Assembly (NCBI RefSeq): GCF_053078305.1
Contig: NZ_CP166875.1
Direction: 5' to 3' (one strand)
DNA length: 64,000 nt
From: a plasmid
The notes below the pieces were generated by a model. The model was not told the DNA's origin and searched no databases. It saw only the letters and a list, made by a program, of their open reading frames with translations. Numbering within the stretch: the first letter of the stretch is position 1; each line of letters begins with the position of its first letter. A program made the position numbers and the translations under genes. Positions 9,625-57,788 of the stretch are shown here, in pieces.

Positions 9625-9637
9625 TCGGGAAAATGTG

Positions 9638-10180
9638 ATGCGCAACAGTAAAGTGCAACTTGTATCAATCCTCAGACAGGTCAGTCTTTCACTGAACACG
9701 GAGCCATTACGACAGTTTATCTCTCTGAGGGAGATTGCAGAAGAGACGGATCACGTCGCTGCTCGTTTGTCCGGAGGAAAACGGGTAACACCTGCACAAA
9801 TTTATGAATTGTGTGCACAGTTATGGATGGCCAGGATGAAGGCAGTTGAAGTTTATGGGCGACATTCTGATGTGGTGATGTCTCTGGAAAGACAGACTGA
9901 TTTACTTGAGGCTGCAGGCAACGTATTAAAACAACGCTGGTTTTACCGTCCGTGGGGATCATCAAAAGCATCTGTGATGCTGACAGGTATACTGGTGATC
10001 CCCGTATTTCTGGTTTTATCCGGATTGTTGAGTGCAGGGTATCCCGGGTTATTATGTATTACCGTATCCGGCTGTTATTTTTCCGGGATTGCCGCTTTTT
10101 CTTTGCGGGCTAAAGATCCAGTCGGGCTTTGCTGGTCTGTGTTCTGTTTTATTCTGCTATATCTGCTCCTGAAAAAATGA
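9638..10180 (+). CDS. hypothetical protein, soluble N-terminal domain plus C-terminal TM helices
   Basis: ORF directly after traU stop; not part of canonical F tra set; C-terminal hydrophobic helices. Confidence 0.4.
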   Translation: MRNSKVQLVSILRQVSLSLNTEPLRQFISLREIAEETDHVAARLSGGKRVTPAQIYELCAQLWMARMKAVEVYGRHSDVVMSLERQTDLLEAAGNVLKQRWFYRPWGSSKASVMLTGILVIPVFLVLSGLLSAGYPGLLCITVSGCYFSGIAAFSLRAKDPVGLCWSVFCFILLYLLLKK

Positions 10181-10908
10181 GATTAATTATTCTGCGTCTG
10201 AATAATGAATGCTCCGCCATTGCGATGTACTCTGAATCCATTGGGATGCCTCCTGCAGGAGAACAGTCTGTAGCGGGTTTTTCCCCCATACCTCAGATTC
10301 AGGACAATAGTTTCACAGAGTGGCGTCTTCCTTGCCTTTTCTTTATATAGTATACCTTTTTTTTTCAGGTTATTAGCTATTCTGTTTCGGATTCCGTGGC
10401 GCAGGATGTGAGACTGTAATGTGATCGTGTTATAAGACGGATAGCATAATATGAAATGTTCAATATTTCCGACAAGCTTGTCTGCGTTGATTCTTGAGGA
10501 TACTTTGACAGATGGTCTGGTAATATATTGTGGATGTATATCGATTCTCAGGCTGGATATAAAGGGGGTAAGATAAAGACCCGTAACAGGCGTTCTGAGC
10601 ATGGACGATGAGAAAAAGAACAGAAAAAACCATAGTGTAATTACAGATATCCCTGACCTGATAATTACAGAGTATATGTTTCCGCTGAAAGGTGAATAAT
10701 CTTTTTGTATCATCAGATGTATGATGGATGACAGTAAAAACAAAATAAAGCCAGCCGGGAATGGTCTTCTCAGAACTCTGAAAAAGAGACTGTTATTTAT
10801 GAAGCGAAAACGAAGCAGGACCGTTAACAACAGCGATAAGAATATCAGTATTATGACCATTTGCACTCCGAAACTGATACATGAACAGATGTTTAAGGGT
10901 GATATTAA

Positions 10909-32600: not shown

Positions 32601-32619
32601 TACAGGAAGACAAACGCTG

Positions 32620-33366
32620 ATGACAACGGATAACACGAACACGACACGTAACGATTCACTGGCTGCCCGGACCGATACCTGGCTGCAGTCGTTGCTGGTC
32701 TGGTCACCCGGACAGCGGGATACCATCAAAACGGTGGCACTGGTGCTGATGGTGCTGGACCATGCAAACCGCATTCTGCATCTGGAGCAGACGTGGATGT
32801 TTCTGGCCGGGCGGGGCGCGTTTCCGCTGTTTGCGCTGGTCTGGGGACTGAATCTGTCCCGTCATGCGCATATCCGTCAGGCGTCCGTAAACCGCCTGTG
32901 GGGATGGGCTGTTGTGGCGCAGTTCGGGTACTTTCTGGCGGGATATCCGTGGTATGAGGGCAATATTCTGTTTGCCTTTGCGGTGGCAGCACAGATGCTG
33001 AAATGGTGTGAATATCACTCGCTGGTATGGTCAGTCAGTGCACTTACACTTCTGGTTCTCTGGTTCCCGTTATCTTCCACCAGTTACGGTGCTGTCGGGA
33101 TCATATTACTGATGCTCTGTCACAGGATATACAGGACGACGCACCTTTCTGTACGGAGCATGCTGGCGCTTTGTCTTTTCCCGGTCGTTGCTCTCGTTAA
33201 CCTGCAGGACAGCGTGACTGCCGCTGTCAGTGGTGTGTTAGTGACATACATGGTCGTCAGGATGGTATCCGGTATCCGGTGGCCTGCTGCCCGTTTCTGG
33301 CCGGCAGACTTTTTCCCGGTATTTTATGTCTGTCATCTCGCTGTGCTGGGAGTGATGGCCCTGTAG
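32620..33366 (+). CDS. traX: TraX pilin N-acetylase, polytopic membrane protein
   Basis: 248 aa from in-frame ATG after traI stop; matches F TraX length. Confidence 0.85.
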   Translation: MTTDNTNTTRNDSLAARTDTWLQSLLVWSPGQRDTIKTVALVLMVLDHANRILHLEQTWMFLAGRGAFPLFALVWGLNLSRHAHIRQASVNRLWGWAVVAQFGYFLAGYPWYEGNILFAFAVAAQMLKWCEYHSLVWSVSALTLLVLWFPLSSTSYGAVGIILLMLCHRIYRTTHLSVRSMLALCLFPVVALVNLQDSVTAAVSGVLVTYMVVRMVSGIRWPAARFWPADFFPVFYVCHLAVLGVMAL

Positions 33367-33445
33367 CAGGAAGCGCAAGAAAGCGGATGAACTGTGAAAG
33401 TCTTTTTGTTTAAATCAGAGCGCATTCAGGAAAAAACAGGAGCAG

Positions 33446-33817
33446 ATGATGAAAAAAATATTACTGGTGGCAGCCATTACGGGAATGTTCGTTCAGGGGG
33501 TATGGGCAAAATCAGATCAGCAAATCCGGGATGAGGCTAAAAATAATGTGATCACTGTTTCTCAGGTGAGTGACATGACGGAGGGGACCGGTGTGACGCT
33601 GAATGGTCAGATAGTGAAGCAACTGGCAGCCGAAGAGGATCATTTTGAACTCAGTGATGCATCAGGAAGTATTGTCATTGATGTCGATGATGAAGTATGG
33701 CGCCCGCTGGCCCTGAAAGCCGGAGATAAAGTTCAGGTTGTGGGAGAAGTGGATATTTCTGATGAGGGAAACCGGAAAGCCACGGTGGATGTACTGACTC
33801 TTGAGCGTCTTCGCTGA
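33446..33817 (+). CDS. periplasmic OB-fold protein (YgiW/BOF-like)
   Basis: signal peptide and sequence pattern of BOF family; inference from memory. Confidence 0.5.
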   Translation: MMKKILLVAAITGMFVQGVWAKSDQQIRDEAKNNVITVSQVSDMTEGTGVTLNGQIVKQLAAEEDHFELSDASGSIVIDVDDEVWRPLALKAGDKVQVVGEVDISDEGNRKATVDVLTLERLR

Positions 33818-33852
33818 TATGAACAACGGATACCGGTGAGGGCAGGTGAGTT

Positions 33853-34410
33853 ATGACAGAGCAGAAACGGCCAGTACTGACACTGAAACGAAGAACCGAC
33901 GTGGAAACACCGACCCGGAGCCGGAAAACCATCATCAATGTCACCACGCCACCAAAATGGAAGGTGAAAAAGCAGAAACTGGCGGAGAAGGCTGCCCGGG
34001 AAGCAGAGCTGGCGGCGAAGAAAGCACAGGCCAGACAGGCGCTGTCCATTTATCTGACGCTGCCCTCGCTGGATGAGGCGGTGAACACTCTGAAACCCTG
34101 GTGGCCGGGATTGTTTGACGGTAACACGCCCAGGCTTCTTGCCTGCGGTATCCGGGAGGTTTTACTGGATGAGGTGTCTCAGCGAAATATCCCGCTCTCT
34201 CATAAAAAACTCAGCCGGGCGCTGAAAGCCATCACCCGTTCGGAAAGTTATCTGTGCGCAATGAAAGCCGGCGCCTGCCGCTATGATACGGAAGGCTATG
34301 TGACAGAACATATCACACAGGAAGAAGAACAGTATGCGCAGGCGCGCCTGGAAAAGGTGCGCAGACAGAACCGGATCAAGGATGAGCTGCGGGCGATCCT
34401 GGCTGAATAA
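33853..34410 (+). CDS. finO: FinO RNA chaperone (fertility inhibition)
   Basis: 185 aa, basic N-terminus, matches remembered FinO. Confidence 0.9.
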
Positions 34411-34766: not shown

Positions 34767-35511
34767 AAATAACCCCCGTCGCGGAGCTCCGGGGGATCAG
34801 GCTTATATGGCAGATCGTTATTATTATTATTATAGTGGTGTAAGAAGGAGTTGCCCTGTCTTTCAAACGGACATCACAGAATTAACATATTTCACCTCCC
34901 GGGTAAGCCAGCAGGGATAAAAAATGTGATGAATTTCAAGAAGCAGGAGGTGACAGTGGCATGCATAACAGCAGGGTTATCCGGTGAATCTGACAGACAG
35001 CCGGGCTGTATTCGCGGCAGGATAAAGAAAAACCGGGAGATGACTCTCCCGGTCCGTCTTATCGCTAATCCCCTGAGCAGGGCATGTATGACTTATCTAT
35101 GACCATTATATTCAGCGCCACATCCGGTAGCCTGCGATATAACACAGTTATCCTGTCAGTAAGAGCAGGTATGATGAATACACGGAGATTAAAAATATAA
35201 TCTCCGTCACATGTTACCCCCGGAAACCGGTAACGCCGTCACGGGAAAGACGTGACAGAAAAAGCAGCCTCCGTTACTCCAGGTATCAGAAGGCTGAATA
35301 ATGCATGAGACTTTCTTTCTTATGTGTCTGGTCAGGCTGGCTGACCAGCGTTTTTAGTAACACATAGCCATATGTGTATTAAGCCACCTCATCTTATTTT
35401 GTTGAATTGATCACAATTCAACGGTTTATTTTTGGCGTGATGTGTGAGCCGTTATTCATCCCGGCATGGAATTCATGCAATAACGAAAAGTAATCAGTGA
35501 CGGAGAGTAAA

Positions 35512-35973
35512 ATGAAGAAATATATACCACTGGTATTATTTGTTTTTTCATGTCAGGTATTTTCTGCTGATATTCATGGACGGGTTGTGCGTGTTCTGGA
35601 TGGCGATACCATTGACGTTATGTTATCTCAGCATCCGGTGCGTGTCCGTCTTGTTAATATTGATGCACCTGAAAAGAAACAGGACTATGGCCGGTGGTCT
35701 GAAAAAATAATGAAATCTCTGGTTGCGGGAAAAACGGTTACTGTCACATATTTTCAGCGAGATCGTTATGGTCGTATTCTCGGGCAGGTTTATGCACCAG
35801 ACGGAATGAATGTTAATCAGTTTATGGTCCGTGCAGGCGCTGCATGGGTTTATGAGCAGTACAACACCGATCCTGTTCTTCCCGTCCTGCAGGGAGAAGC
35901 ACGACAGCAGAAACGTGGTCTGTGGGCAGACAGCGCTCCTGTTCCGCCCTGGGTATGGCGCTCACGGAAATAA
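35512..35973 (+). CDS. secreted thermonuclease-family (SNase-like) nuclease
   Basis: signal peptide; RVVRVLDGDTIDV...VRLVNIDAPE motif typical of staphylococcal-nuclease fold. Confidence 0.75.
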   Translation: MKKYIPLVLFVFSCQVFSADIHGRVVRVLDGDTIDVMLSQHPVRVRLVNIDAPEKKQDYGRWSEKIMKSLVAGKTVTVTYFQRDRYGRILGQVYAPDGMNVNQFMVRAGAAWVYEQYNTDPVLPVLQGEARQQKRGLWADSAPVPPWVWRSRK

Positions 35974-36060: not shown

Positions 36061-36459
36061 ATGAAAGGTGAACAAATGAACTATCAGGCAGTATCAGAAT
36101 TAATCACATCGTCTAATCATAATGTTCTTATTGTGGGGGACTCAGCTTCTGAAGTTGATAGCTTTTTAAATAAACTGAATATTACTGATTATAAGTATTA
36201 TGATTTCAGCCAGATTTACAGTTGTTCTGACAGAACATTAAATGATTATGCGGTTATTTTTATCAGGGATGCACTGAACGCCAGTGAGCATATTATTATT
36301 TTTAATTGTACAGGATGGCCTGATTTGAATAATGAATCTGCCGTCATGCAGTTTGCCAGAGTGGCACGAAAATCAGGAAAACAACTGATAGTCGCAGTAA
36401 GAGAACAGGATATGAAAAAAATGGAAGCAGAGTTTGGAAGGATCATAAAAATCCACTGA
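36061..36459 (+). CDS. hypothetical protein with alternating strand/helix pattern
   Basis: 132 aa AT-rich ORF; followed immediately by second copy of structured element. Confidence 0.4.
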   Translation: MKGEQMNYQAVSELITSSNHNVLIVGDSASEVDSFLNKLNITDYKYYDFSQIYSCSDRTLNDYAVIFIRDALNASEHIIIFNCTGWPDLNNESAVMQFARVARKSGKQLIVAVREQDMKKMEAEFGRIIKIH

Positions 36460-42890: not shown

Positions 42891-43472
42891 TTATTTATAA
42901 AACGTTGCAATTTTAGCATCATTTTTTATTGTTCTTTTTAACCTGAAGTACGTCGATCGAGAGATACCTGTTTTTTCTGTCACACTGCCCAGAGATTCTC
43001 CCTGTGATATAAGCTCCAACGCTGTAGGCGTTCGTGGATGCTTCTTCCTGCCAAATTTTACGCCTGCGGCAAGTGCCGCTATTCTTCCGTCGTTTGTCCG
43101 CTCCAGAATACGCTCACGTTCCGCTTCAGCTACAGCAGCAAGGATTTGGATAACCATTTTGCCCATTGTCCCTTCTGTACTGAGACCGTTCTCCAGGAAC
43201 CGGATGGCGATCCCCTTTTTGTAACAGCTATCAACCACACGAATCATGTCAGCAGTGTTACGCCCCAGTCGGTCCATTTTTGTACAGATGATTACGTCGT
43301 CTTTCTCTGCACGGGCCAACAACCGCTGTAGTCCTTCCCGTTCATCAGTTGCGCCAGTCATCATATCCGTAAAAATACGATCTTCCCGTACCCCGGCATT
43401 TTTTAGCTCCGAGATTTGATGTGTTAGCTTCTGATGACTGGTTGATACCCGTGCATACCCCAATAACGCCAT
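42891..43472 (-). CDS. tnpR: serine-recombinase resolvase TnpR
   Basis: MALLGYARVSTSHQ catalytic Ser motif, C-terminal HTH. Confidence 0.85.
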   Translation of the reverse strand: MALLGYARVSTSHQKLTHQISELKNAGVREDRIFTDMMTGATDEREGLQRLLARAEKDDVIICTKMDRLGRNTADMIRVVDSCYKKGIAIRFLENGLSTEGTMGKMVIQILAAVAEAERERILERTNDGRIAALAAGVKFGRKKHPRTPTALELISQGESLGSVTEKTGISRSTYFRLKRTIKNDAKIATFYK

Positions 43473-43484
43473 TTTTAGTCTCAC

Positions 43485-43628
43485 TTATCGTTTTTGACAC
43501 TGCATGGTATCATAATGTACAAAATACGATTTTTGAAACCTGCTTTTATGCTGTTTTAGACAGGTATCAGATATCTTAATATTTGATACTAGCCATATTT
43601 AACAAATATTTAGCATTTTGGTAAATGT
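43485..43628. promoter_or_regulatory. res site region between tnpR and tnpA
   Basis: divergent intergenic region with TGTC..GACA-type dyads. Confidence 0.5.
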
Positions 43629-46600
43629 ATGCAGAAGTACAAGAAAAGAATTAGTATATTAACAAAAAGTGAAATAAATGAATTATATCAAGTCCCCTCT
43701 TTTAATCCTGTTGAAAGGGATGAGTTTTTTTCGCTGGATATCAGCCTTAAAAGAGAAATTGATAAAATAATAAATATAGAAAGCAGGGTGTATCTGATAT
43801 TAATAACAGGGTATTTCAGATATAAACCTGTGATTCCTGAATTTACATTAAAAGACGTAAAAAGGGATGTGAAATATATTATCCAGACATATTATAAAAA
43901 CGAAAGTACTAATCTCAATTTAAACATACCTAAAAGTACAAAGTACCGCCTTGTTAAACGAATGCTTTCTACTCTAGGATTTGAACAACTCACCCCATCT
44001 ATAAAAAATGAGTTAAGTGAACGTCTGAATGATGTTGCTACTATATGTATGGAACCAAAATATATTTTTGATGAATTACTTGCTTTTTTAGGACAGCGGC
44101 GTATAGCTCTTCCTGGATACAGTACTGTCCAGAACCTCGTTTCAGATGCTTTAAACTTTGAAAGGAAAAGGACAATTAATATTTTGTCAAAGAGAATTTA
44201 TCCTGCCACTGCACAAAAGATTACATCCATCATCCATGATGATGGAATATTAAATTCCATCAGGGGATATAATTATAGCACGAGAGACTTCTCAGCATCA
44301 GAAATAGAAAATGAATTAAGAACTCACAATGTGATAAGTAGTATTTACTATGAAATAAAAGATATAATTAATTCATTAGGTATATCCCAGGGAAACATGG
44401 AGTACTATGCAACTATCGTAAAACACAGTACAACATTCAGACTTAAGCGACACCCTAAATGGCAAGGAATACTTTATTTGTGCTGCTACTTGTACTTCAG
44501 ATACAGAGAGATAAATGATAAAATAATCACAGCCTTCAGATATTTAGTAAAAAAACATAAAGACGCTTCAGTTTTGTTTGCAAAAGCTCGGGCAACAGAG
44601 GAAATAGATCTAATAAATAAAAAGCTTAAGTTTGCGAGTAAAATATTTAACTTCTTCGTTGATAGTAACATTGAAGACAGCATCCCTTTTGGATATGTTC
44701 GTGAAAAGGTTTTTTCACTTATATCGAAAGATGATATGCATCTTGTGAGTGAATTTTTTGACAAAAATAAAATCGATGTAATTGAATATCAATGGCAGTA
44801 TATTGACAGCCATCACCTTAAGATCGCCAATTCAATCCGAAAGCTTTTTCTGGCTATAGATATAGTATATGACAACGAGAAGTCTGTTATTGGCCAGCAA
44901 ATTACTGCTGCCAAGGATGATCTCAGAGGAAAAGGAAAGCTGGATGCTAAGGATCTGAGGGTAATTCATCCATCCGAGAAAAATTACATTGTAAAAGAAG
45001 GAGAAATTAACACTCAACGATTCGAATTTCATATGTACAGCAGGGTATCTAACCATCTGGAAAACGGTGTCTTTTATGCTGCGGAGAGTGAACAAAACAA
45101 GAGACTGGAAGATGATCTCATAGAACGAAGTTACTGGCATAAGAATAAATCGATTTTGATAGAGAAAACAGGCCTTGAACGACTTATCACACCAATAACG
45201 CAGACTCTTAATGAGCTGGAGAATACCTTTAGCGATAAACTGGCTCGTATAACCATTGGAATAAACTCAGATGCTAATGAGTTTGTGAAAAAACAACCAC
45301 ACTCCAACAGATTACAGTGGAGTCTGGCCAGTAAAAAATGGAAGACCAGCATCGATAATCCGATTTACAATCAGATAAAAAATATCGGAATAGTTGACGT
45401 AATGAAGTATGTAAACAATGAGACGAATTTTTTGTCTGTGTTTAATGCCATATCATCCAGGAAAAATAATCTTGAAGCTGACTATAATGACCTTCTTGCC
45501 TGTATATTTGGTAATGGCGCAAATTATGGTGTTCACAGAATGGCATCTGCATCAGACCGTAGTATTGGAATACTACGTGATGTGAATGACAAATTCATTC
45601 GTCCAGAAACAACAGGAATGGCCAACACAGTAATATCTGATGCAATTGCAAATCTTTCTGTATATAAATACTGGACGATAAATGAAGATTCTCCATTTGG
45701 AAGTGTTGATGGGCAGAAGCACACTTGCAGAATAAATACATTTAAAGCCCGTTATTCTGCCAAGTATTTCAGAAAGGGGAAAGGGGTTTCTGCGATGACA
45801 CTGGTATCTAATCATGTGCCATTATCAACTGTGGTAATTTCTCCAAATGAATATGAAGGTCATTTTGCATTTGACTTGTTATATAACAACACCAGTGAAA
45901 TACAACCAAAGTCATTAGCGACTGACAATCATGGTATAAACAACGTTAATTTTGCGATTCTTGACATTTTTGGCTATCAGTTTTCACCACGTTATGCAAA
46001 ATTCAAGAAAATATTTAATGAATTATTTGATGTTATACTGGAGAGTGATAAACTCATTATAAAACTTAAAAAACAATTTAACTTTAAGCTCATTGAACAT
46101 GAATGGGAAAACATCCAACATATTATTTGTTCTTTAAGCAGAAAAACAACCATTCAAAGTACGGTTGTTAAGAAGTTATCTAATACAAAGCGTAGCAACA
46201 AGACATTAGCAGCACTTCGGGAGTATGACCGAGTTATAAAATGCATATATGTCCTGGATTATGCTGACAATAAAACCTTAAGGCAATTTGTGCAACAAGC
46301 ACTGAACAGAGGTGAAGCTTATCATCAACTAAGAAGAGCAATAGCATCAGTAAATGGAAATCAATTTCGCGGTGGTAATGACTACCAAATAGATCAATGG
46401 AACGACTGTGCGAGGTTAATAGCTAATTGTGTAATCTATTATAATTCAGCAATATTATCCAGGCTGGTCGAGAAATTTGAAAAAGAAAATAATAAAAAAG
46501 CGATAGATGTTCTGGCTAACTTATCCCCAGTAGCATGGAGACACATTCTCCTTGGAGGGAATTATTCTTTTGAAGATCAAGTTGCGATCACAAATTTGGA

Positions 46601-46667
46601 CAGTCTTTTGGAGGGAGTAGACCCACTAAGTGATATCGGAGATATTGAGTCCGAATATGACGGTTAA
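43629..46667 (+). CDS. tnpA: Tn3-family transposase TnpA
   Basis: 1012 aa, AT-rich, typical size for the family. Confidence 0.9.
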   Translation: MQKYKKRISILTKSEINELYQVPSFNPVERDEFFSLDISLKREIDKIINIESRVYLILITGYFRYKPVIPEFTLKDVKRDVKYIIQTYYKNESTNLNLNIPKSTKYRLVKRMLSTLGFEQLTPSIKNELSERLNDVATICMEPKYIFDELLAFLGQRRIALPGYSTVQNLVSDALNFERKRTINILSKRIYPATAQKITSIIHDDGILNSIRGYNYSTRDFSASEIENELRTHNVISSIYYEIKDIINSLGISQGNMEYYATIVKHSTTFRLKRHPKWQGILYLCCYLYFRYREINDKIITAFRYLVKKHKDASVLFAKARATEEIDLINKKLKFASKIFNFFVDSNIEDSIPFGYVREKVFSLISKDDMHLVSEFFDKNKIDVIEYQWQYIDSHHLKIANSIRKLFLAIDIVYDNEKSVIGQQITAAKDDLRGKGKLDAKDLRVIHPSEKNYIVKEGEINTQRFEFHMYSRVSNHLENGVFYAAESEQNKRLEDDLIERSYWHKNKSILIEKTGLERLITPITQTLNELENTFSDKLARITIGINSDANEFVKKQPHSNRLQWSLASKKWKTSIDNPIYNQIKNIGIVDVMKYVNNETNFLSVFNAISSRKNNLEADYNDLLACIFGNGANYGVHRMASASDRSIGILRDVNDKFIRPETTGMANTVISDAIANLSVYKYWTINEDSPFGSVDGQKHTCRINTFKARYSAKYFRKGKGVSAMTLVSNHVPLSTVVISPNEYEGHFAFDLLYNNTSEIQPKSLATDNHGINNVNFAILDIFGYQFSPRYAKFKKIFNELFDVILESDKLIIKLKKQFNFKLIEHEWENIQHIICSLSRKTTIQSTVVKKLSNTKRSNKTLAALREYDRVIKCIYVLDYADNKTLRQFVQQALNRGEAYHQLRRAIASVNGNQFRGGNDYQIDQWNDCARLIANCVIYYNSAILSRLVEKFEKENNKKAIDVLANLSPVAWRHILLGGNYSFEDQVAITNLDSLLEGVDPLSDIGDIESEYDG

Positions 46668-46976: not shown

Positions 46977-47324
46977 TTATATGCGGATTCCAGCGCGTTC
47001 CGTTCGTTTCGGGTGCTTCCAGTTGATACCTTCAAGAAGCATGGATAACTGAGCCGGAGTAAGGTGCACCTTGCCGTCACGGGTGACTGGCCAGACGAAG
47101 CGGCCCCGCTCCAGGCGTTTGGTGAAGAGGCACAGTCCGTCACTGTCAGCCCACAACACTTTTATCTGGTCACCCCGGCGTCCGCGGAAGATGAACAGGT
47201 GTCCGGAGAACGGGTCATCCTTCAGGACGTTCTGAACTTTTGATGCCAGGCCGTTAAAGCCATTTCGCATATCGGTGATACCTGCAACCAGCCAGATACG
47301 CGAACCTGCAGGGAGAGATATCAT
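46977..47324 (-). CDS. IS66-family TnpB (orf2)
   Basis: 115 aa, typical IS66 orf2 size and sequence. Confidence 0.8.
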   Translation of the reverse strand: MISLPAGSRIWLVAGITDMRNGFNGLASKVQNVLKDDPFSGHLFIFRGRRGDQIKVLWADSDGLCLFTKRLERGRFVWPVTRDGKVHLTPAQLSMLLEGINWKHPKRTERAGIRI

Positions 47325-48001
47325 CAGTGGCTGCTCCCTTTTATTTCGCGGATAAGTGTCTGTAATAACGCCGGCGTCAGTTTACCTTTAAGCCTGAGAG
47401 TTCCGGCCGGCAGAACCAGCTCACAACACAGACTGTCGGACGGTGTATTTATCTGCTCTGGTTCCTGTGCGGGGGCCGGGATTTTATTATCCGGCTCCGG
47501 CGTTAACGTCACGGGAAGCAGTGCCGGCATATTTTTTCCGGAAGGCAGCAGGCCACCTTTCCGGTATTGATGGCGCCAGTTGAAGAGCAGGTTATCGTTG
47601 ATTCCGTTTTCCCGGGCGATCTGCGCCACACAGGCTCCGGGCTGCAGTGACTGCTCCACTAAGGCGATTTTAAACTCATAAGGGAAGTTGGGCCGCCGGG
47701 GACGTTTTTTTACCACGGGGGCTTCGGATATAACGGTGCTTTCAGGACGTACGACTGGTACCGTGGAAAATTGTCCGTAAAGGCAGGCATCAAGTTCCTG
47801 CTCCGACATGCCTGCGGGCAAAGGCCACGAAAGGCCAGCTCTCCGAAAGCGCACGAACATACTACAAACTGTTGATTTTGGTACACCCAGGCGACGCCCG
47901 GCCACAACCCGGGGTAAATGTTCTTCAAAGTGAAGACGTAAAGCTTCAGTGATCCAGGTCCGGTGTTTCATACGATAGTGTCCATTAAAAATGATGGACA
48001 T
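47324..48001 (-). CDS. IS66-family TnpA (orf1)
   Basis: contains KRPRRPNFPYEFKIALVEQSL...LLFNWRHQYR HTH region; start uncertain. Confidence 0.7.
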   Translation of the reverse strand: MSIIFNGHYRMKHRTWITEALRLHFEEHLPRVVAGRRLGVPKSTVCSMFVRFRRAGLSWPLPAGMSEQELDACLYGQFSTVPVVRPESTVISEAPVVKKRPRRPNFPYEFKIALVEQSLQPGACVAQIARENGINDNLLFNWRHQYRKGGLLPSGKNMPALLPVTLTPEPDNKIPAPAQEPEQINTPSDSLCCELVLPAGTLRLKGKLTPALLQTLIREIKGSSH

Positions 48002-48329
48002 TATTTTTGTAGAGCCGGAGGAAACAGACCAGACGGTTTAAATGAGCCGGTTACAAACAAATTCGCTTCATAAATTTCATAGTGCAGACCACATCCCCAA
48101 TGAGCCTGCTTTTCCAGCCTGCTGATCACCACATCAGCCCGGATAACATCAAAGGGATTGCGGGAATGAATATTACGAATAAAGCCATCGGTACGTGCTG
48201 CTGACATATTTCTGCCCATCTTTAATACACCTCTGTTTTTTGCCCCCATCATCTGTTGAGTTTCGGGAGCCGCGGTTTTGACGTTTTGCGGGGACCTGCC
48301 TTTTGTTCCCTCCGGTATTCACCATCACC

Positions 48330-48720
48330 TGTTTGAGAACCTTCGCCGCAAGGGGCATCACTGCCACGGCCGGAAACGACTGTCCGGGGGCAGACCGCAA
48401 AAGTTTTTGCCTGCTTTTGGGCAAAAAGTTTTGCGGGATGTGCATTTCACCCCTGGACTGGCGGAGACGGTTGTGGCTGTCTTTGCCCCCGGCGACAGGG
48501 GCTTAAACAGGTGTATGGCACCGGACACAACAACGGGCAGGGACCCGCCGCAACGACGAAGAGCGCGTGCGCGAAACGGCGTTGCCCCTTACATCCCGGC
48601 GGCCTTTTGCCGGGATGCCAGGAGCGCAGGCCACGGCGCGACAGAGGCGGCGCGACCGGAACGGTCGCTGCAAGCCCGGGGTTTCGCGTCAGGGATGGAA
48701 GCCCGCCAGGGCGGAGACAG
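48330..48720. promoter_or_regulatory. GC-rich hairpin repeat, copy 1 (candidate Frpo/ssi-type single-strand element)
   Basis: homologous to 53740-54010; core GAGCGCAGGCCACGGCGCGACA.AGGCGGCGCGACCG...CGGTCGCTGCAAGCCCGG. Confidence 0.5.
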
Positions 48721-49078
48721 CTTCGCTGGCTCCGTTCACGACAGCCCGCCCCGCCTGGGGGACGCCCGGAAAAGGCATAAGCAGGAGAACAACAAAACAG
48801 ACAATAATCAGGGCAGCAGTAATCAGAGTCAGAACAGGAGGAAAAAGAGAATAATCAAAGGGAAGGTGATGTGATTTCCGACAGGTCATAAACAGAGAAG
48901 GCGGGGGAAAAGAACGGGCGCCGCAGGCGCGCGTTCATCCCCGTTCCCGGAGGGAATCGGCCTTCCTGGCAGTCTGGTTGTTCATGCTGCTGCAATGTCA
49001 GCAAGGAGAAAGGGGCCACCGGCGAACCAGCAGCCCCTTTATAAAGGCGCTTCAGTGCAGTCAGACCAGCATCAGCCC

Positions 49079-49104
49079 TGAAAAGGCGGGCCTGCGCCCG
49101 CCTC
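49079..49104 (-). terminator. rho-independent terminator of hok transcript
   Basis: GGCGGGCGCAGGCCCGCC hairpin followed by T-tract on - strand. Confidence 0.6.
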
Positions 49105-49111
49105 CAGGTTG

Positions 49112-49270
49112 CTACTTACCGGATTCGTAAGCCATGAAAGCCGCCACCTCCCTGTATCCGTCTCTGTAACGAATCTCGCACAGCGATTTTCGTGTCAGAT
49201 AAGTAAATATCAACAGTGTGAGACACACAATCAACACACACCAGACAAGAGAGCTGCGTGGTAGTTTCAT
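49112..49270 (-). CDS. hok: Hok host-killing type I toxin; overlapping mok frame extends to 49411
   Basis: [52 protein letters not shown]. Confidence 0.85.
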
Positions 49271-49544
49271 GGCCTTCTTCTCCTTGCGCAAAGCGCGGTA
49301 AGAGGCTATCCTGATGTTGTCAGACATATGGGATGCCTCGTGGGTTAATGAAAAATTAACTACGGGGCTATCTTCTTTCTGCCACACAACACGGTAACAA
49401 ACCACCTTCACGTCATGAGGCAGAAAGCCTCAAGCGCCGGGCACATCATAGCCCATATACCTGCACGCTGACCACACTCACTTTTCCTGAAAATAACCCG
49501 CTCATTCAGGCTGTTTACGGGTAATCTGTGTGATTGTTGCCGCA

Positions 49545-50264
49545 TCACGCCGCCTCCCGGAGTTTGTTCGGCACCATCCACCGCTCCATCTCACGGACAG
49601 CGTGACCCGCCTCCCTTGCTGCCATACCTGCCTCTGCGATGACCTGCCAGAATGGCATATCCTGCCACTGCCAGCGTTCCATCCCGGCCAGTGACGGAAA
49701 ACGCTCACCCCACTGCCAGAACAGGGTTTCCAGGTCATGCTCTGCCACCCGGTCACTCCAGCGTGCATACCAGCTTCCGACTGTTTCCGGTGAATGGAAC
49801 GCCAGTTCGATTTCAGCCTGAGCGACCAGCGTCTGGTACGCACGGGCTTTCTGCTCTGCCTCCCGTGCCTGCTGGCGGCTGTACTTCTGCATGACCAGCA
49901 CGGATTTATGGCGACTGCGTTCCCTGACACGGAACCGCACCGACGGGAACAACCGCTCTGCTGCATCACCGGGAAGGGGAAGGAGGCAGACCTCGCCCTG
50001 TGTTTCAATCAGCACATCGACGGCATACAGCCACTGAGAACGGTTGCCGCGCAGTTCTTCTGCGGTCAGGGACGGCATGAAAAATCGCAGGTCAGACAGC
50101 GAAATCCTGCGGCTTCCGTTCAGACAGCGGAAAAACGCCCCCGCATACGGATATTCCGCCAGCGTGTTACCCTGGTGGCGGCGTTTTTCTGTCTCCGCCA
50201 CCGCCCGCCATGCGGCCTGTTGCTCTGTGCTGAGAGGAACCAGTGCCTGTGAACGTGCGCTCAT
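49545..50264 (-). CDS. psiA: PsiA plasmid SOS-inhibition protein
   Basis: 239 aa matching remembered F PsiA. Confidence 0.9.
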
Positions 50265-50695
50265 GCCTGACCTCCTTCCGCCATCAGGATATGGATGATG
50301 TCACTGACGCTGTATCCCTGTTCATCCAGTGATGCCGCCAGTGCCAGTGAATGGCTGACAGCTTCCGGTGCAAACCGCCGCTGCACCTGAACCACCGCAA
50401 ACGGCTCACCACCGGCATTCACCAGAACCAGCACCCAGACCTGAGAGACATCGCCCGGTGAACATAACGCCAGGTGAAAACGTTCGTGGGCAGGCGTGAA
50501 ACGGACCTGGACGGGGAAAAAGCCGCCGAACTCGCTGCCGTACTCGCCATTCATCGTCCAGTTGTCCGGCGCATCCAGTTCCCGCATCACGGCGTGTGTC
50601 AGCTCACGGCGTTCATCACTTCCGGCAGCCCGGATATCTTCATATTCCTGTGCGCTCATGGTCTGTAATACATTCAGGGTCAGTTCAGTTTTCAT
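50261..50695 (-). CDS. psiB: PsiB RecA inhibitor
   Basis: [66 protein letters not shown] matches F PsiB. Confidence 0.9.
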
Positions 50696-50749
50696 CACGG
50701 TATCTCCCTTGCTGCCGCCCCGTCTCCGGCGGGGCGGTGTGGTTGTTCA

Positions 50750-52708
50750 TCAGGCGGCATCAGCCAGGTTATCGGCGCGTTCAGTGGCATCCGTCTGTGG
50801 ACGTGGTGAACCCATCCAGCCAGGCACCCAGCGGTTGTCTTTCATGTGGAACTCTGCATGTTCAGCGGCATCGCCTTTCTTCATCTTCTCCGCGTCCCGT
50901 GCGGCACCGGACAGTCCGGCATCATTCAGGGCATCGATAATCTGCGGCTTTTTCAGGTGACCGAAGAAGTTTGCTTTTGTCGGCTGCCACCAGTCACGCA
51001 TGTGAAAGCCGATGGCGCTCTCCAGCGAGTCCAGCGGACTGCGTGACGTGTGACCATACTCGCGGGTCTGAACGCCGTGGATGCTGCACGCGGTGCAGAA
51101 ACTGAGCAGTGATAACAGCACGTCCTGGCTGAGTGACAGGAACGTCGTCATGTCCCGTGCCCATCCCTCCGGTAACAGGGCAGCAAGACGGGCTTTTTCT
51201 GCCATCATCGCCATGAATGCGGCACCGTCCTTCCCCGATGGCGCATCGCTGGTCAGCGAATAATGTTTACATTCCAGGCTGATTTGTGCTGGTTTACTGT
51301 ACGCTCCGCTGCCAAACACATTCAGGCAGAGCGTCCATGCCAGCAGTGCCAGAGATTTGTCCGGTTGCTGCATGAGTGCCGCCTGGACTGCCAGCGTGCG
51401 TTCGGAAGACATTTTCGTCAGCAGTGGCAGACTGATTTCCTCCACTGACGCTTTCTCCTGCACCTGTTCCGTGCGGTCAGCGTCGTCAGTCACGTCATCT
51501 TCACTGCGCAACTGCACACCACGCTGGACACACACATTACCGTAACGCCAGGACACCACCACGCCACTTCCGGCACGCATCTCCGGCGTCCACGCCCTGA
51601 CCTTCGCCATGCAGTCAATCAGCTTCATTTCTGCTGCCAGCAGGTCAGATTCCTCACACTGGTTTTCCAGCGCGTCGTAACGCATCATCAGTTCGTTCAG
51701 GCGTTCTTCTTCTGCCTCCGTCAGCACCGCTTCCGGCTCCGGCAGGTTGCGGTATGCCCGGGAATCTTCACGGCACTCACCGACAGGCTCCATGCGTCCG
51801 GCGCACCATTCCCAGCCTTCGGCTTCCCGAAGGTGTTCAGCGACAGCCTGGAGTTTTTCCAGCAGGGCGGCATCGAGCGCCACGCAGTCCACATAGCCAC
51901 CCTCGTCATCGCTGAACAAATCAGTACGCAGTTCGTCAGGTGAGAAAGCATCAGCCCCCACGAAGCGGAATTTAGTGTTGTCCTTCACCGCCACTTCACT
52001 TTCCGTAATCAGATTGCGGATAACCCGCACATCCGGTTTACCGCCCCATCCTGACTGGCAGGCCGCTTCAAACACCTGCACCTGACGCGCGGTGTCGTTC
52101 TCCAGCGCCAGCGCCTGACAGTGCTCGGTGGTGATGCGGTCTTCTGCCAGCGCATCGAGGATGACAGGCGCAAGGTCTGCCAGTTTCAGCATTCGCTGAA
52201 CGTGGCGGGGCGAATAACCCAGCAAATCACCGATTTGTGCAGGTGTTTTGCCTTCCTGCGCCATTGCACGGAATCCGGCAATCTGTTCGGCAGGGTGCAT
52301 ATCCCGACGATGACCGTTCTCGGTCATCGATGCGGCAGTCGCCAGCTCCTGCGGAATGACCTTCACACGGACAGGCCAGTCAACCTGAATGATGTCACGC
52401 TCTGCCAGCATGTTGAGTGCTGCCAGTCGGCGACCACCTGCGGCGACACCGTAACGGTCACCTGGCAGGGCATGAACAACCAGATTCTGTAACAGGCCGA
52501 CACCTTTAATGGAGTCCGCCAGTTCGCTGACGGACTCCGCAGAATACGGCACCGTGCGCACATTCAGCGGAGACTTAATCAGCGAGGCCAGCGGCACGCT
52601 CACTTCCTCCGTCTGCGCCAGCAGGGCCGACAGGACTGTTTCCTGCGTTTTTGCAGGTTTACGGCTGGATTTACGCTCCGTTTTTGCCTTAGACTCTGTA
52701 ACTGACAT
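50750..52708 (-). CDS. ParB-like nuclease domain protein of leading region
   Basis: ~652 aa with N-terminal ParB/Srx fold motif; position between ssb and psiB as in F. Confidence 0.8.
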   Translation of the reverse strand: MSVTESKAKTERKSSRKPAKTQETVLSALLAQTEEVSVPLASLIKSPLNVRTVPYSAESVSELADSIKGVGLLQNLVVHALPGDRYGVAAGGRRLAALNMLAERDIIQVDWPVRVKVIPQELATAASMTENGHRRDMHPAEQIAGFRAMAQEGKTPAQIGDLLGYSPRHVQRMLKLADLAPVILDALAEDRITTEHCQALALENDTARQVQVFEAACQSGWGGKPDVRVIRNLITESEVAVKDNTKFRFVGADAFSPDELRTDLFSDDEGGYVDCVALDAALLEKLQAVAEHLREAEGWEWCAGRMEPVGECREDSRAYRNLPEPEAVLTEAEEERLNELMMRYDALENQCEESDLLAAEMKLIDCMAKVRAWTPEMRAGSGVVVSWRYGNVCVQRGVQLRSEDDVTDDADRTEQVQEKASVEEISLPLLTKMSSERTLAVQAALMQQPDKSLALLAWTLCLNVFGSGAYSKPAQISLECKHYSLTSDAPSGKDGAAFMAMMAEKARLAALLPEGWARDMTTFLSLSQDVLLSLLSFCTACSIHGVQTREYGHTSRSPLDSLESAIGFHMRDWWQPTKANFFGHLKKPQIIDALNDAGLSGAARDAEKMKKGDAAEHAEFHMKDNRWVPGWMGSPRPQTDATERADNLADAA

Positions 52709-52773
52709 AGTTAGTACCTCCCAAAACGGTAATAATGATTGTCTGCCGGACGCGTTCCCGTCCGGCACCTCTC

Positions 52774-53049
<276 letters not shown>

Positions 53050-53064
53050 TCACAGTCAGGCCAG

Positions 53065-53592
53065 TCAGAACGGGATATCGTCTGAAAATCCGTAATCCTC
53101 CCCCTCCGGCGGCTGAGGCTGAGGCTCGGGCTGCGCGGCCTTACGTCCACGGCCTTTCGTTTTCGCGCCACTTTTTTTCGTCGCGTCAGCACTCTGTGGC
53201 TGCCCATTCTGCTGAGGCTGCGGTTGTGCCTGAGCGTTCTGCTGTGGTGCAATCCCCAGCATCTGCATGGTGCCCGTGGTCTTAACAAGAATTTCAGTGA
53301 CGTAACGGGTGATACCGTTATCTTCCCAGCTACGGGTTCGGAGTTGCCCCTCGATATAGACCTGCGCGCCCTTGCGCAGATATTCACCAGCCACTTCCGC
53401 GAGCTTGCCGAACAGCACCACGCGGTGCCATTCCGTCTGCTCCCGCATCTCCCCCGTCTTTTTGTCGCGCCAGCTTTCTGATGTGGCCACCTGCAGGTTT
53501 GCCACTGCGCCCCCGTTGGGGATGTAACGGACCTCCGGATCATTGCCCAGACGCCCGACGAGGATGACCTTGTTGATACCACGTGCACTCAT
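53065..53592 (-). CDS. ssb: plasmid single-stranded DNA-binding protein
   Basis: [25 protein letters not shown]-fold; acidic C-terminal tail DDIPF. Confidence 0.9.
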
Positions 53593-53739
53593 GAGAACCT
53601 CCTGACTGAAAGATGTGAGATAAACCGGATACCGGAGACGGGACGTTCATATGCCCCTTCAGAGGAGCGAAAGCTCCTCCTGCCGTCCACTTCTTCGGGG
53701 TTTCTCCCCGCAGTGGACCTTTCCGATGGGGGCCCGTTT

Positions 53740-54010
53740 ACCGCCTCACGGGACAGCTGTCCGGGGGCGGACGCAAAATTTTTTGCCGGGTTCATGGCTA
53801 AAAATTTTGTGGCCGGTATATCTTCCCCTGGACTGATGGAACGGGAGGTGGTTACGTCTGCCCCCCGGAAAGTCCACAGCGGGAAACAGGCCGCAGAGGT
53901 GGCGGCAGAAGAGGAGCGCAGGCCACGGCGCGACAAAGGCGGCGCGACCGTTCCGGTCGCTGCAAGCCCGGGTTTTCACGCATCGGACCGTAGCGACAGC
54001 CCGAAACCGC
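53740..54010. promoter_or_regulatory. GC-rich hairpin repeat, copy 2, upstream of ssb
   Basis: homologous to 48330-48720. Confidence 0.5.
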
Positions 54011-54292
54011 GCCAGCGGGTTCGGCGGAGACTGGCGGGTGCGCCAGCAGTTGCCTGTCGGAGTCGGGCCTGACGACCGGATGCCGCCAGGCAGCCGGGAG
54101 CCGAAGGGGCGCATGTGTAAGAAGGTTCTTTAACGACAGGTCTGTAACAGGTACTTCCTGAAACAACGCCTGTCACCAACAGGAAGGGTAACGGGCGACG
54201 CGCCAGCGTGGCCCGCATCCCTTCCGGCAGGCGCCAGCCTGCCAGGGGTTTTCGCGCGGGCTGACAGGCGGCCTCCACCGCCTACCCCTGTA

Positions 54293-54484
54293 TCACCTGT
54301 GCCTGCTGCCCTGAAGGATGTAGTGACCACCGAGGAAAACCGCCTGCTGATTCGCCACAAAATCACAGATTTCATCAACAATCTGCGCGGTGGTGAGCGG
54401 TTTCTGCCCCATTTCACGACGCCGCGCATTAATCACGGCTTTGTAATTGCGCAGAATTTCGCGGGTTTCCGTGCTGATATTCAT
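54293..54484 (-). CDS. hypothetical small protein
   Basis: 63 aa ORF. Confidence 0.35.
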   Translation of the reverse strand: MNISTETREILRNYKAVINARRREMGQKPLTTAQIVDEICDFVANQQAVFLGGHYILQGSRHR

Positions 54485-54903
54485 TACCCGTTCTCCCCGT
54501 CCAGCGCCTGACGCATTACCCGCATAATCTCACGTTCTTCCCTGACAAATGCGTCACCGTCGCCCCCGTTCTCGCTCCCTACAGCATGGAGGCGATAAAT
54601 TTCACTACCAGCCATCACCATCACTTTTTCCAGCAGCACCGCAGGGACTGTTACAAGACGGTTTACGCGCTTTTCCTCCATCAGTTCATTGACAATATCG
54701 GAAACAACTCTGTCACATGCGCCATATACAAAAGCATCGTCCAGCCGCTGCATGACGGTTTCCAGCTCATCGTCTGACAGGTTCCAGTCCCGGGCTATGT
54801 GGCGCACATCCCCGCGGGTCAGCACCACGGCAAAAACACATTCACTGTCCGGCACGTCTGTATTCAGCACTTCGCGGATAATTTCTTTAACAGTACAGTA
54901 CAT
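54484..54903 (-). CDS. hypothetical acidic protein (paralog of 56437-56871)
   Basis: shared LSD.E..TV..RL.D and VTVPA.LL motifs with 56437-56871 product. Confidence 0.5.
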   Translation of the reverse strand: MYCTVKEIIREVLNTDVPDSECVFAVVLTRGDVRHIARDWNLSDDELETVMQRLDDAFVYGACDRVVSDIVNELMEEKRVNRLVTVPAVLLEKVMVMAGSEIYRLHAVGSENGGDGDAFVREEREIMRVMRQALDGENG

Positions 54904-54949
54904 GTTCTCGTCTCCTTTACAGGGGCGGCATTGCCGCCCCGTCCGTTAA

Positions 54950-55375
54950 TCAGTCCAGTGCCGCGTAAATCGCGTTACATTCGGGGTGAAATTCGATGTG
55001 GCTCCACAACTGCGCATCGCGCATCCGGTAAAGCTGGGTCAGTCCTGCATCCCCGCTGTCGTGGTACAGCCACAACTGGCGGTTAATCACAAGGGAAGTC
55101 AGGATGATACCTGCGGCATCAGCACTCACAGTGCGGTCAAACCAGTTTTCACCGTTGACCAGATGAAAACGGTCGCCATCCGGCATCATGTAACCGCCAC
55201 CGTCCGGCAGGCGGATGAAATGCCAGAAGCCTCCCTGATATTCCGGCATCATTTTTTGCGCCAGCGCGTACACATACGCCTCGGCATACAGAAAATCGTT
55301 GCCAAACAGGTAAGGCAGAAAGGAGAGACGGTCGCACTCTTCAACGTTCAGAGTGACAGATTTCGCATACTGCAT
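54950..55375 (-). CDS. klcA: KlcA/ArdB-family anti-restriction protein
   Basis: 141 aa from [30 protein letters not shown]; family assignment from memory. Confidence 0.6.
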
Positions 55376-55621
55376 GGGATTTCCTCCGTTGTTCACATAT
55401 TCCGCGACACCGGGCGGTGCCGTGCCTCCAGAAAAGCCGGGCGATAAGGCGGGGATGCAAGGGCGCAAGGGAAGCCGCAGCCTGACGCACACGGCTGGCG
55501 GGAGTTGGAGGGTGAGACCGCGAAATCTGAGCGGGTGAACGACCGGAAAATCACGGCAGACGGGAAGGAGGGACCGGGTGACCGCCGCGTGCATTTTACC
55601 CTTGCATCCCCGCCAGCGTCA

Positions 55622-56392
55622 TCATTTCCGGATTTTCGCCAGTGCATCCGCCATGCTGCGGATTTCATCCCGTGCCTCCAGAACAACCTCCCGCAGAATA
55701 TCCCTGTCAAACCAGCGACGGGACGGTTCATCCGGTATACGCAGCACATCACAGACCAGACCACTGGCCAGGATATGCTCCACACACTCACAGACCAGGT
55801 ACATTTCCACCGCCGAAAAACGGGCGCCACGGTTCAGAATGGCATCGAGCACCACGGGCAGATTTTCGTCATCTTCATCAAGCCAGCAGGGGTAATCGCT
55901 TTCCTTCACGACCAGACGAAAGCGGCGCGTCTGGCGGGTCAGCAACGTCTGACCGGTGGTGGTCAGCGCCGCCCGGATACGCCGCGTATCTTCTGCCACC
56001 TGGTAACAGATGCTTCGTACTGCATTGCGCACCGCATCAAGAACTGCCCTGATTTCTTCCTCCGTCAGCCATTCACCGGCATACGGGAAAGACACCTGCG
56101 TTCCGTCTGCCGGAAGTACCGGCAGCGCCTGCCACTGGCTGCCGGACAGAACAAGTTCCGCTCCGGTTCCGGTCAGTTTCTGAATGGCGGAGGCCAGGTG
56201 CGGCGGCAGTACGCCATCATGGCGGCTGATAAGTAACGTCGCCAGCCGGGATATATCCAGTCGCACATAAATGCTGATCCAGCCCGGATAGTGCGGATTC
56301 AGTTGTTCAATATCCGTCTCTTCCGGCCAGCCCTGCGCCAGCAGCAGGTTACGGGCGTGGCGACAAACCAGTGCATTCAGCGTTTTGTTCAT
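55622..56392 (-). CDS. hypothetical protein
   Basis: 256 aa ORF from MNKTLNALV. Confidence 0.45.
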
Positions 56393-56436
56393 GATTAATG
56401 GTCTCCCTGAATCGCCGCCCGAAGGCGGCGATAACA

Positions 56437-56871
56437 TCAGTCGTTTTCGTGTGTGTTGTTTTTCAGCAGGGCGCGGGCCTGATTAACCACCGCCTGACGG
56501 CGGGTGACGCATTCCGGGACGACGAGGCCGTTATCACGGGCGTCCCACTCACGTTTCCACAGTGCCTGTTCGGCGGTCTGAATCAGGGACGCCAGCAGTT
56601 CAGCCGGGACGGTCACCTGGCGGTTTTCGCTCACGTTGCTGATAATCTCCATCGCCACGCCGGAAGAAATACCGGACTCAGTCCGCTGGTCTTCCGGGAT
56701 GTCCTCCAGGCGCACCAGGACGGTCCTGATTTCATGATCGGACAGGGAAATATCCATTCCGTCAGCGAGGGCCTGAATCTCTTCCGGGGACCAGACAACC
56801 AGCATCAACGGCGTGTCTCCCGGATACTTTACTGCCAGCGCCCGGCAGAGCGTTTCGCATGTTCCGTACAT
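56437..56871 (-). CDS. hypothetical acidic protein (paralog of 54484-54903)
   Basis: 144 aa, shared motifs with 54484-54903 product. Confidence 0.5.
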
Positions 56872-56882
56872 ACTCTCTCCCC

Positions 56883-57104
56883 TCAATCTTTGAAGCAGGA
56901 ATCCAGTTCCAGAATTTCGGTATATGCCTCCATCAGGAGGCGGTTTGCGCGAAACAGCGTCTGACGCACCAGACGTTCCGGCAGGGTGTCAGCATTAAAG
57001 CTGTACCGCCGCTCCATCTCATTCATGGTTGTACGCAGGTCGCACATGGCATTGGCCACCTCCGCCACTTCGGCGCGAAGGTTTTCATGTCCGGCATAGT
57101 TCAT
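56883..57104 (-). CDS. hypothetical small protein
   Basis: 73 aa ORF. Confidence 0.35.
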   Translation of the reverse strand: MNYAGHENLRAEVAEVANAMCDLRTTMNEMERRYSFNADTLPERLVRQTLFRANRLLMEAYTEILELDSCFKD

Positions 57105-57788
57105 TTACGCAGCCTCCGGCATAAACCAGTCATCATTTGCGGCCCCCTGCTGCATGGCCCGCTGTACGGCAGCCAGACGTTGCTGTCCGGCACGGTGATA
57201 CTGCTCAAGCAGCTCGATACCGATATACCGGCGTCCGGACTGGAGGGCGGCGACGCAGGTTGAGCCGCTGCCTGCAAACGGGTCCAGCACAATCGCGTTC
57301 GGATGTGTGAAGCTCTCAATCAGTGGTTGCAGGCTGGTAACGGGCTTTTCCGTCGGGTGATGGCGGTTGCCCGAATATTTCCAGCCCAGCACATCCGGCA
57401 GCGGGTTACGGGGCCGGGCCGGACTGCCCTTTGCCAGGATGTAAGCGCATTCGTGGCGGTACGCGACATACACAGATTTGGATGTGTAGTTTTTGGTGAA
57501 GACCAGGTGCCCAACCACGCTGAATCCGGCGCGTTTCCAGGCCGCCATAAAGCGGTCAATACGGTGCCAGCCGTAGAAGCTGACCATCAGCGCGTCTTTT
57601 TTGAGTACGCGGTACATCTCATTGCTGGCAGGTTGCAGCCAGTCATCATTAACGTCACCGGCAATGGTGCGCCCGGAACGGTCACGGAAACCGACGAGAT
57701 ATGGCGGATCGGTTAATATGAAATCAATGGCGTTATCAGGAATCGTGGCCATAACACGCACGCAGTCACCCAGGATAAAACGGGACAT
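57105..57788 (-). CDS. orphan N6-adenine DNA methyltransferase
   Basis: DPPY catalytic motif, FAGSGSTCVAA AdoMet-binding motif, no adjacent restriction enzyme. Confidence 0.8.
   Translation of the reverse strand: MSRFILGDCVRVMATIPDNAIDFILTDPPYLVGFRDRSGRTIAGDVNDDWLQPASNEMYRVLKKDALMVSFYGWHRIDRFMAAWKRAGFSVVGHLVFTKNYTSKSVYVAYRHECAYILAKGSPARPRNPLPDVLGWKYSGNRHHPTEKPVTSLQPLIESFTHPNAIVLDPFAGSGSTCVAALQSGRRYIGIELLEQYHRAGQQRLAAVQRAMQQGAANDDWFMPEAA

Follow-up and report, generated by a model that had tools for sequence, protein, structure and literature searches.

The 64,000-nucleotide stretch of plasmid DNA analysed here (contig NZ_CP166875.1 of assembly GCF_053078305.1; in the following designated the window) carries, between traX and finO, a gene of the BOF family that is accessory cargo of one rare F-like plasmid lineage and no core tra gene. 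The mildly new points are limited to two, namely that the traX-finO junction is a three-state cargo slot, which is empty or harbours either the gene of an alpha/beta hydrolase or the BOF gene, and that traX of this lineage is chimeric. As a joint explanation, to which we assign a probability of about 0.6, we propose that the BOF gene was imported by recombination, is transcribed with the tra operon, and encodes an exported periplasmic protein which would bind cationic stressors.

The BOF-family gene and its product

The gene extends from 33446 to 33817 on the plus strand (123 codons from the first ATG, TGA stop codon at 33815-33817), as supported by the open reading frame, the Pfam and NCBIfam assignments, and the structure. 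Two adjacent ATG codons are located at 33446 and 33449, and the Shine-Dalgarno motif AGGAG at 33438-33442 is separated from them by 3 and 6 nt, respectively. PGAP/RefSeq selected the second one (33449), which results in a protein of 122 aa (WP_000722532.1); either start codon leads to the identical mature protein. The RefSeq name of this entry is "NirD/YgiW/YdeI family stress tolerance protein", and since the databases carry an annotation of this kind, the gene as such is an ordinary one. A chance reading frame was ruled out by the scores obtained with the Pfam family BOF and the NCBIfam model NF033674.

The upstream neighbour, traX (32620-33366, plus strand), encodes the F-type pilin acetylase (Pfam TraX, 158 bits) and corresponds to the PGAP annotation in pRM10466-2. 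In the NCBIfam profile search, TraX reached 317 bits with TIGR02755 (cut-off 149) and 400 with the equivalog PRK13706, just under the cut-off of 419. Downstream of the BOF gene, finO (33853-34410, plus strand) encodes the fertility inhibition RNA chaperone, which matched FinO_N with 126 bits, ProQ/FinO with 95 bits, and NF010317 with 342 bits (cut-off 136). Pfam and NCBIfam thus confirmed both neighbours named in the first-pass annotation, according to which the gene follows traX and precedes finO at the tra operon's distal end. According to our reading of the sequence, the spacer between traX and the BOF gene comprises 79 nt (33367-33445, plus strand) and includes the AGGAG motif, and that between the BOF gene and finO comprises 35 nt (33818-33852, plus strand) and includes the finO ribosome-binding region AGGTGA (33844-33849).

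The first 21 residues of the BOF protein (33446-33508, plus strand) have the sequence features of a signal peptide with a predicted cleavage site after VWA. By inspection, the N-terminus MMKKILLVAAITGMFVQGVWA, which is followed by KSDQ, displays the canonical layout composed of a positively charged n-region with two lysine residues, a hydrophobic core of 12 residues, and V-W-A at positions -3 to -1, in agreement with the earlier description of the 123-aa product as a secreted protein. Alanine-21 and the adjoining K/R-S/T-D motif are conserved throughout the BOF subclade described below, and residues 1-20 are those with the lowest pLDDT of the AlphaFold model. As the protein is devoid of cysteine, it is not a lipoprotein. 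The mature OB-fold domain of 102 aa (33509-33814, plus strand) has a mass of 11.1 kDa and a pI of 4.4, and its net charge of about -10 compares with a median of -6 in the BOF family, in which 90% of the members are negative.

The match to the Pfam family BOF (PF04076) scored 58.7 bits (gathering threshold 25.8; E = 6.8e-16) and extended over positions 17-102 of the 103 in the profile, and NF033674, the NCBIfam model of the NirD/YgiW/YdeI stress_OB_fold domain, was matched with 85.8 bits at a cut-off of 35. The Pfam assignment had been named beforehand as a check of the BOF-family proposal; as a BOF match was obtained, the refuting outcome, a profile search without such a match, was not seen. 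All residues conserved in the family (G54, D71, G74, D81, W85, G100-E-V-D103, and V116) are kept in the plasmid protein. A phmmer search of the PDB sequences gave E. coli YgiW (1NNX, E = 1.8e-8) as the sole meaningful match. The AlphaFold2 model, based on an alignment of 94 sequences, has a mean pLDDT of 90.2 and shows a five-stranded barrel (strands at residues 49-59, 66-71, 74-80, 95-105, and 111-121) that is preceded by two short helices. When it was compared with the PDB by Foldseek, 1NNX was again the top match (rmsd 1.6 Å over 91 columns, target TM 0.85, 30% identity), so that profiles, sequence match, and fold comparison all bear out the BOF/YgiW-like OB-fold proposed earlier. The subfamily models were not reached: the score with TIGR00156 (YgiW/YdeI) was 54.6 bits, under the cut-off of 108.15, and that with the YdeI equivalog NF007471 was 25.3 bits, under the cut-off of 179. 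These scores and the location at a traX-finO plasmid site instead of a chromosomal one beside qseBC exclude a YgiW/YdeI orthologue, and as judged from the profiles, the protein is to be regarded as a member of the broad BOF family. It also matches phrog_1230, and none of the PADLOC defence-protein families was matched at E <= 0.01.

Relatives of the protein are few. An exhaustive search with HMMER among 1.84 billion representative proteins returned 429 sequences at E <= 0.001 and just 23 at E <= 1e-10, the nearest full-length ones being 45-54% identical (44-53% in a word-indexed search). The nearest relatives with a name are chromosomal genes of Acinetobacter, with identities of 42-55% (A. pecorum 50%, strain ANC 4169 52%, A. 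pittii 50%, A. baumannii 42%), and in the species-representative genomes this Acinetobacter locus has the conserved order LysE-VTT-DoxX-BOF. In 23 BOF loci of the species-representative genome scan, mostly from Acinetobacter and Pseudomonas, neither TraX nor FinO was found nearby. The divergent BOF subclade to which the plasmid protein belongs has common features, in particular the cleavage region VWA/KSDQ and the core GSIVIDVDD...LKAGDKV.V.GEVD; relative to the other members, the last loop of the plasmid protein contains an insertion of two residues.

Distribution and origin of the gene in the traX-finO slot

At a nucleotide identity of at least 99%, the BOF gene is present in 25 of the 72,556 plasmids in PLSDB, all of which are conjugative IncF plasmids of E. 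coli with sizes of 54-133 kb and differing replicon combinations. Of 5,426 complete E. coli genomes, 26 contain the gene, every copy being plasmid-borne and none chromosomal. The sources of these 26 genomes are mainly cattle, sheep, Eastern bongo, beef, and STEC from human stool, and the STEC serotypes among the carriers include O103:H2, O111:H8, and O22:H8. With 25 plasmids as opposed to at least 5,000 F-like plasmids in which traX and finO were matched, the gene is not conserved across the F-like (MOBF12/MPF_F) plasmids, and it is not among the entries of the tra/trb gene catalogue of PMC5102898.

The whole traX-BOF-finO query was covered in 24 plasmids. In the other plasmids, among the matches listed, the slot was either empty, as in pNDM-d2e9, where 54 nt separate traX from finO, or occupied by the gene of an alpha/beta hydrolase of 286 aa, of which pP15-385-a and pSTEC17_183-a provide examples (hydrolase coordinates 1089-1949 in L003 and 1009-1869 in L021). 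The hydrolase was the occupant in about 15 of 40 plasmids of a spread sample, and the closest tra lineages among the matches listed, the flanks of which are 93-95.5% identical, all have it. This hydrolase is probably 'orf286' of the older R6-5/R100 literature. An upstream orf286 reportedly raises finO mRNA levels, an effect that is attributed to work of van Biesen and Frost from 1992; a full-text literature search found no paper containing the term 'orf286'.

The chimeric nature of traX became evident by comparison with pSTEC17_183-a (L021), the nearest tra lineage. Over the first approximately 250 nt (32617-32866) the identity is 94-100%, followed by 76-80% at about 32867-33016 and by 42-76% up to the end of traX. 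At the protein level, the N-terminal half of TraX is 90% identical to the nearest tra lineage and the C-terminal half 46%. In a tblastn search of the plasmid collection, the C-terminal 117 aa were at least 99% identical in exactly 25 plasmids and, among the matches listed, less than 60% identical in all of the at least 4,975 others. On the other side of the BOF gene, homology to the hydrolase-slot plasmids restarts at 33839, which is 14 nt 5' of the finO start codon; finO matches pSTEC17_183-a at 86% identity over its initial 50 nt and at about 100% thereafter. These breakpoints in nucleotide identity delimit a recombination tract (33013-33838, plus strand) composed of the 3' half of traX, the spacer, and the BOF gene.

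From the identity pattern, this tract of about 830 bp appears to have been imported as one block from an unsampled F-like plasmid, and it most likely displaced the hydrolase gene in the slot. The tblastn search for a donor of the traX 3' half gave nothing above 55% identity beyond the 25-plasmid lineage, among the matches listed, and when the C-terminal 117 aa were used as query at the protein level, the sole match was a fragment of the same TraX. The chimeric traX documents recombination with an F-like lineage that is missing from current plasmid collections. The GC3 values (0.67 for the 5' half of traX, 0.60 for its 3' half, 0.45 for the BOF gene, and 0.63 for finO) suggest a history in two steps, in which the BOF gene would have entered the donor plasmid from a source of lower GC content and the traX-BOF segment would later have entered the present lineage. 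The Acinetobacter BOF genes are too divergent to have been the direct donor.

Insertion as a transposon or cassette was considered and rejected, as flanking repeats are lacking and the boundaries within traX and at the start of finO fit homologous recombination. At the flanks of the BOF gene, the search for direct repeats or terminal inverted repeats yielded nothing but short, probably fortuitous matches. The latter include two pairs of 13-nt inverted repeats (33269-33281/33824-33836 and 33287-33299/33862-33874, each 92% complementary) that bracket the gene in a crossing, non-nested manner and are probably chance matches.

The 601-bp query was spanned completely by 24 of the 25 plasmid copies, including one with a frameshift, and the 25th ends with its record. 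The polymorphisms among the copies are all protein-changing (D43G, V19G, T48S, A61V, T112R, and the frameshift) and none is synonymous; the substitutions are too few for dN/dS or a selection test and give no positive sign of purifying selection. The absence of synonymous changes and the frameshifted copy would agree with a neutral hitchhiker that owes its persistence solely to its location in a recombination tract in the context of an essential operon, and which may be decaying. Any effect of the gene would then be an indirect one, via the spacing or stability of the finO message, for which the reported influence of orf286 upstream of finO on finO mRNA provides a parallel, and the empty slot of pNDM-d2e9 demonstrates that an occupant is dispensable. 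We nevertheless consider this explanation unlikely, as the 24 complete copies are spread over plasmids of 54-133 kb with varied replicons and as the gene has a good Shine-Dalgarno motif, an intact signal peptide, and every family-conserved residue. Moreover, the frameshift, which occurs in the plasmid of strain 2013C-4282 (L014, NZ_CP027580.1), results from the loss of 1 bp from a G-run at codon 17 (equivalent to position 33496 of the window) and could represent a homopolymer sequencing error as well as a real pseudogene; the other copies examined are intact.

Several other features of the plasmid were recorded. Downstream of finO, a gene at 35497-35973 (plus strand) encodes a protein of the staphylococcal-nuclease (SNase) family with an N-terminal hydrophobic leader (PGAP: 'thermonuclease family protein'), and an open reading frame of 132 aa at 36061-36459 (plus strand; GC content 0.35, GC3 0.32) encodes the hypothetical protein WP_001109063.1, for which no convincing match was obtained with Pfam, NCBIfam, or PADLOC. 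Within the tra operon, the stretch between the traU and trbC homology blocks (9617-12098) is about 2.5 kb long compared to about 0.6 kb in pRM10466-2, with which it shares no match of 400 bp or more, and looks like a further variable insertion point. The ranges 42891-46667 and 48234-59298 comprise a pair of a Tn3-family resolvase and transposase, with an IS transposase fragment at 47324-48001, and beyond it the leading region (psiB/ssb/parB-like segment). The orientation of the leading region is inverted with respect to pRM10466-2, so that an inversion mediated by a transposon or an IS element is suggested. A subunit of a UmuC/ImpB-family translesion polymerase (60172-61446, plus strand) and the plasmid segregation ATPase ParM (61857-62891, minus strand) represent ordinary backbone or cargo.

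Expression and proposed function

In the preferred reading, i.e. an exported stress-tolerance cargo, expression of the BOF gene would depend on the tra operon. A simple consensus scan of both strands between 32600 and 34800, which a weak or non-canonical promoter may escape, detected no sigma-70 promoter-like site, and a motif scan detected no terminator-like site on the plus strand between traX and finO. The RNAs of the spacers upstream and downstream of the BOF gene were predicted to fold no better than shuffled sequences (z = -1.04 and z = -0.21, respectively). On the basis of these scans and z-scores, a promoter, terminator, or regulatory RNA belonging to the BOF gene itself was judged improbable. 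Since neither a promoter nor a terminator was found between traX and finO, we infer that the gene is probably co-transcribed with the distal tra operon and finO by read-through and translated from its own Shine-Dalgarno motif, its mRNA being a part of the distal tra/finO transcript.

The activities reported for members of the BOF family are disparate. SipA of Vibrio cholerae is a periplasmic protein that binds antimicrobial peptides and has OmpA as a partner, and E. coli ygiW is able to cross-complement it (PMC6370654). Porin partners in the family are OmpA, OmpF, or OmpD (PMC6370654), and VisP (YgiW) of Salmonella binds peptidoglycan and inhibits LpxO (PMC5636140). A transfer of function from YgiW to the plasmid protein is risky because of the identity of only about 30% and the failed YgiW/YdeI subfamily cut-offs. 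The strong acidity of the protein and the retained family core nevertheless make a periplasmic binder of cationic stressors the best-supported guess, and we infer location, ligand, and phenotype from these features and from the signal peptide. According to this model, homologous recombination with an unsampled F-like plasmid would have delivered the traX 3' half together with the BOF gene, whose product would be exported via the Sec pathway to become a small soluble OB-fold protein of the periplasm. By analogy to SipA, YdeI, and YgiW, the acidic mature protein would most likely bind positively charged stressors, for instance metal cations or antimicrobial peptides, possibly together with an outer-membrane porin, and the result would be a higher envelope-stress tolerance of the plasmid host.

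Porins are receptors for F-type TraN, and one may envisage a protein that is co-produced with the type IV secretion system and has the envelope of the donor as its target, where it would offset the permeability or stress caused by pilus assembly or alter mating behaviour by binding porins from the periplasmic side. The BOF gene is located inside the tra transcription unit, with a promoter or terminator of its own being absent from the scan, the family has the porin partners described above, and inheritance in one block with the divergent traX 3' half indicates that the traX-BOF linkage is older than the present lineage; all this is consistent with a conjugation-linked role. Such a role is distinctly improbable, however, in view of the fact that more than 99% of the F-like plasmids do without the gene and have an empty slot or an unrelated hydrolase in its place, that in the 23 loci scanned no BOF relative adjoins TraX or FinO, and that the other mobile-element BOF copies examined occur in contexts which have nothing to do with conjugation. 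A more specific version, in which the protein would be a dedicated accessory of a divergent, unsampled F-type transfer system, co-expressed with its type IV secretion system and either binding OmpA, OmpF, or OmpC from the periplasmic side or plugging pilus leaks, must be considered very improbable. If it were true, changed TraN-receptor properties of the donor might lead to a new function in exclusion or mate choice, and the block inheritance with the foreign traX 3' half would reflect a functional linkage and not an accident. A cytoplasmic nucleic-acid-binding OB-fold protein, as the label 'DNA-binding protein' in AP026744.1 and the matches to the Pfam OB-fold families RMI2 and tRNA_anti-codon and, at lower Foldseek ranks, to RPA, CST, and tRNA-synthetase anticodon-binding OB folds might imply, can be dismissed with near certainty, since the Pfam matches are weak and all below the gathering scores, the OB-fold structures fit more poorly than 1NNX, and the signal peptide and the acidic pI of 4.4 with a net charge of -10, which is unsuited to nucleic acid, rule out this annotation.

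If the plasmid protein is a periplasmic stress-tolerance factor, as we prefer to assume, the ruminant- and STEC-associated lineage would use the traX-finO slot for an extra periplasmic stress-tolerance paralogue, in strains of STEC that already have ygiW and ydeI on the chromosome and a further BOF copy on a Stx phage. Should it bind antimicrobial peptides of the host, it might contribute, as a minor plasmid-encoded factor, to fitness in gut colonisation, with its expression tied to conjugation. The practical value of the finding is modest.

Comparison with known systems

Like E. coli YgiW and Salmonella VisP (1NNX), the plasmid protein consists of a signal peptide and one BOF OB-fold domain (about 100 residues), and it shares with them D-x-x-G, W, and G-E-V-D as conserved positions. 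Differences are the identity of about 30%, the score below TIGR00156, the plasmid-borne location that is not beside qseBC, and the last loop, which reads ISDEGNRKAT with its two-residue insertion in the plasmid protein and THRxKPTD in YgiW. YdeI (OmdA) of Salmonella is a periplasmic BOF protein, tied to antimicrobial-peptide resistance and porin interaction (PMC6370654, PMC5636140), but it is chromosomally encoded and stress-regulated. SipA of V. cholerae (VCA0732) is a BOF-family member as well and is located in the periplasm, as is predicted for the plasmid protein; its induction depends on a two-component system of its own, whereas for the plasmid BOF gene neither a regulator nor a promoter is visible and expression appears to be tied to tra. 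The paralogue encoded in the Acinetobacter LysE-VTT-DoxX-BOF locus shares the VWA/KSDQ cleavage region and the GSIVIDVDD...LKAGDKV core, but is chromosomal and located downstream of the gene for the membrane protein DoxX, with no TraX or FinO nearby.

BOF genes are known as cargo of mobile elements, namely of Stx phages and of a Klebsiella IncFII plasmid. The BOF gene of Stx-converting phages (L0136 of 933W, VT2-Sakai) resembles the plasmid gene in that a mobile element of STEC carries it as accessory cargo, but its product is only 36% identical and it occurs in a phage context adjoining a hok-like gene, outside of any tra operon. On the IncFII plasmid pKAM645_4 of Klebsiella quasipneumoniae (L005), a separate BOF paralogue with 38% identity is encoded at 4923-5288, next to genes for an ECF sigma/anti-sigma pair and a cluster of MsrPQ, DoxX, CMD-family, and DUF692 proteins. 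This cluster links plasmid BOF proteins to periplasmic oxidative-stress modules, and together with the DoxX linkage of the nearest relatives it makes a role of the present protein in oxidative stress possible. The closest counterpart with respect to position is the 286-aa alpha/beta hydrolase, which occupies exactly the same slot from the traX stop codon to the finO ribosome-binding site, but belongs to an unrelated protein family and, unlike the BOF gene, is common among IncF plasmids.
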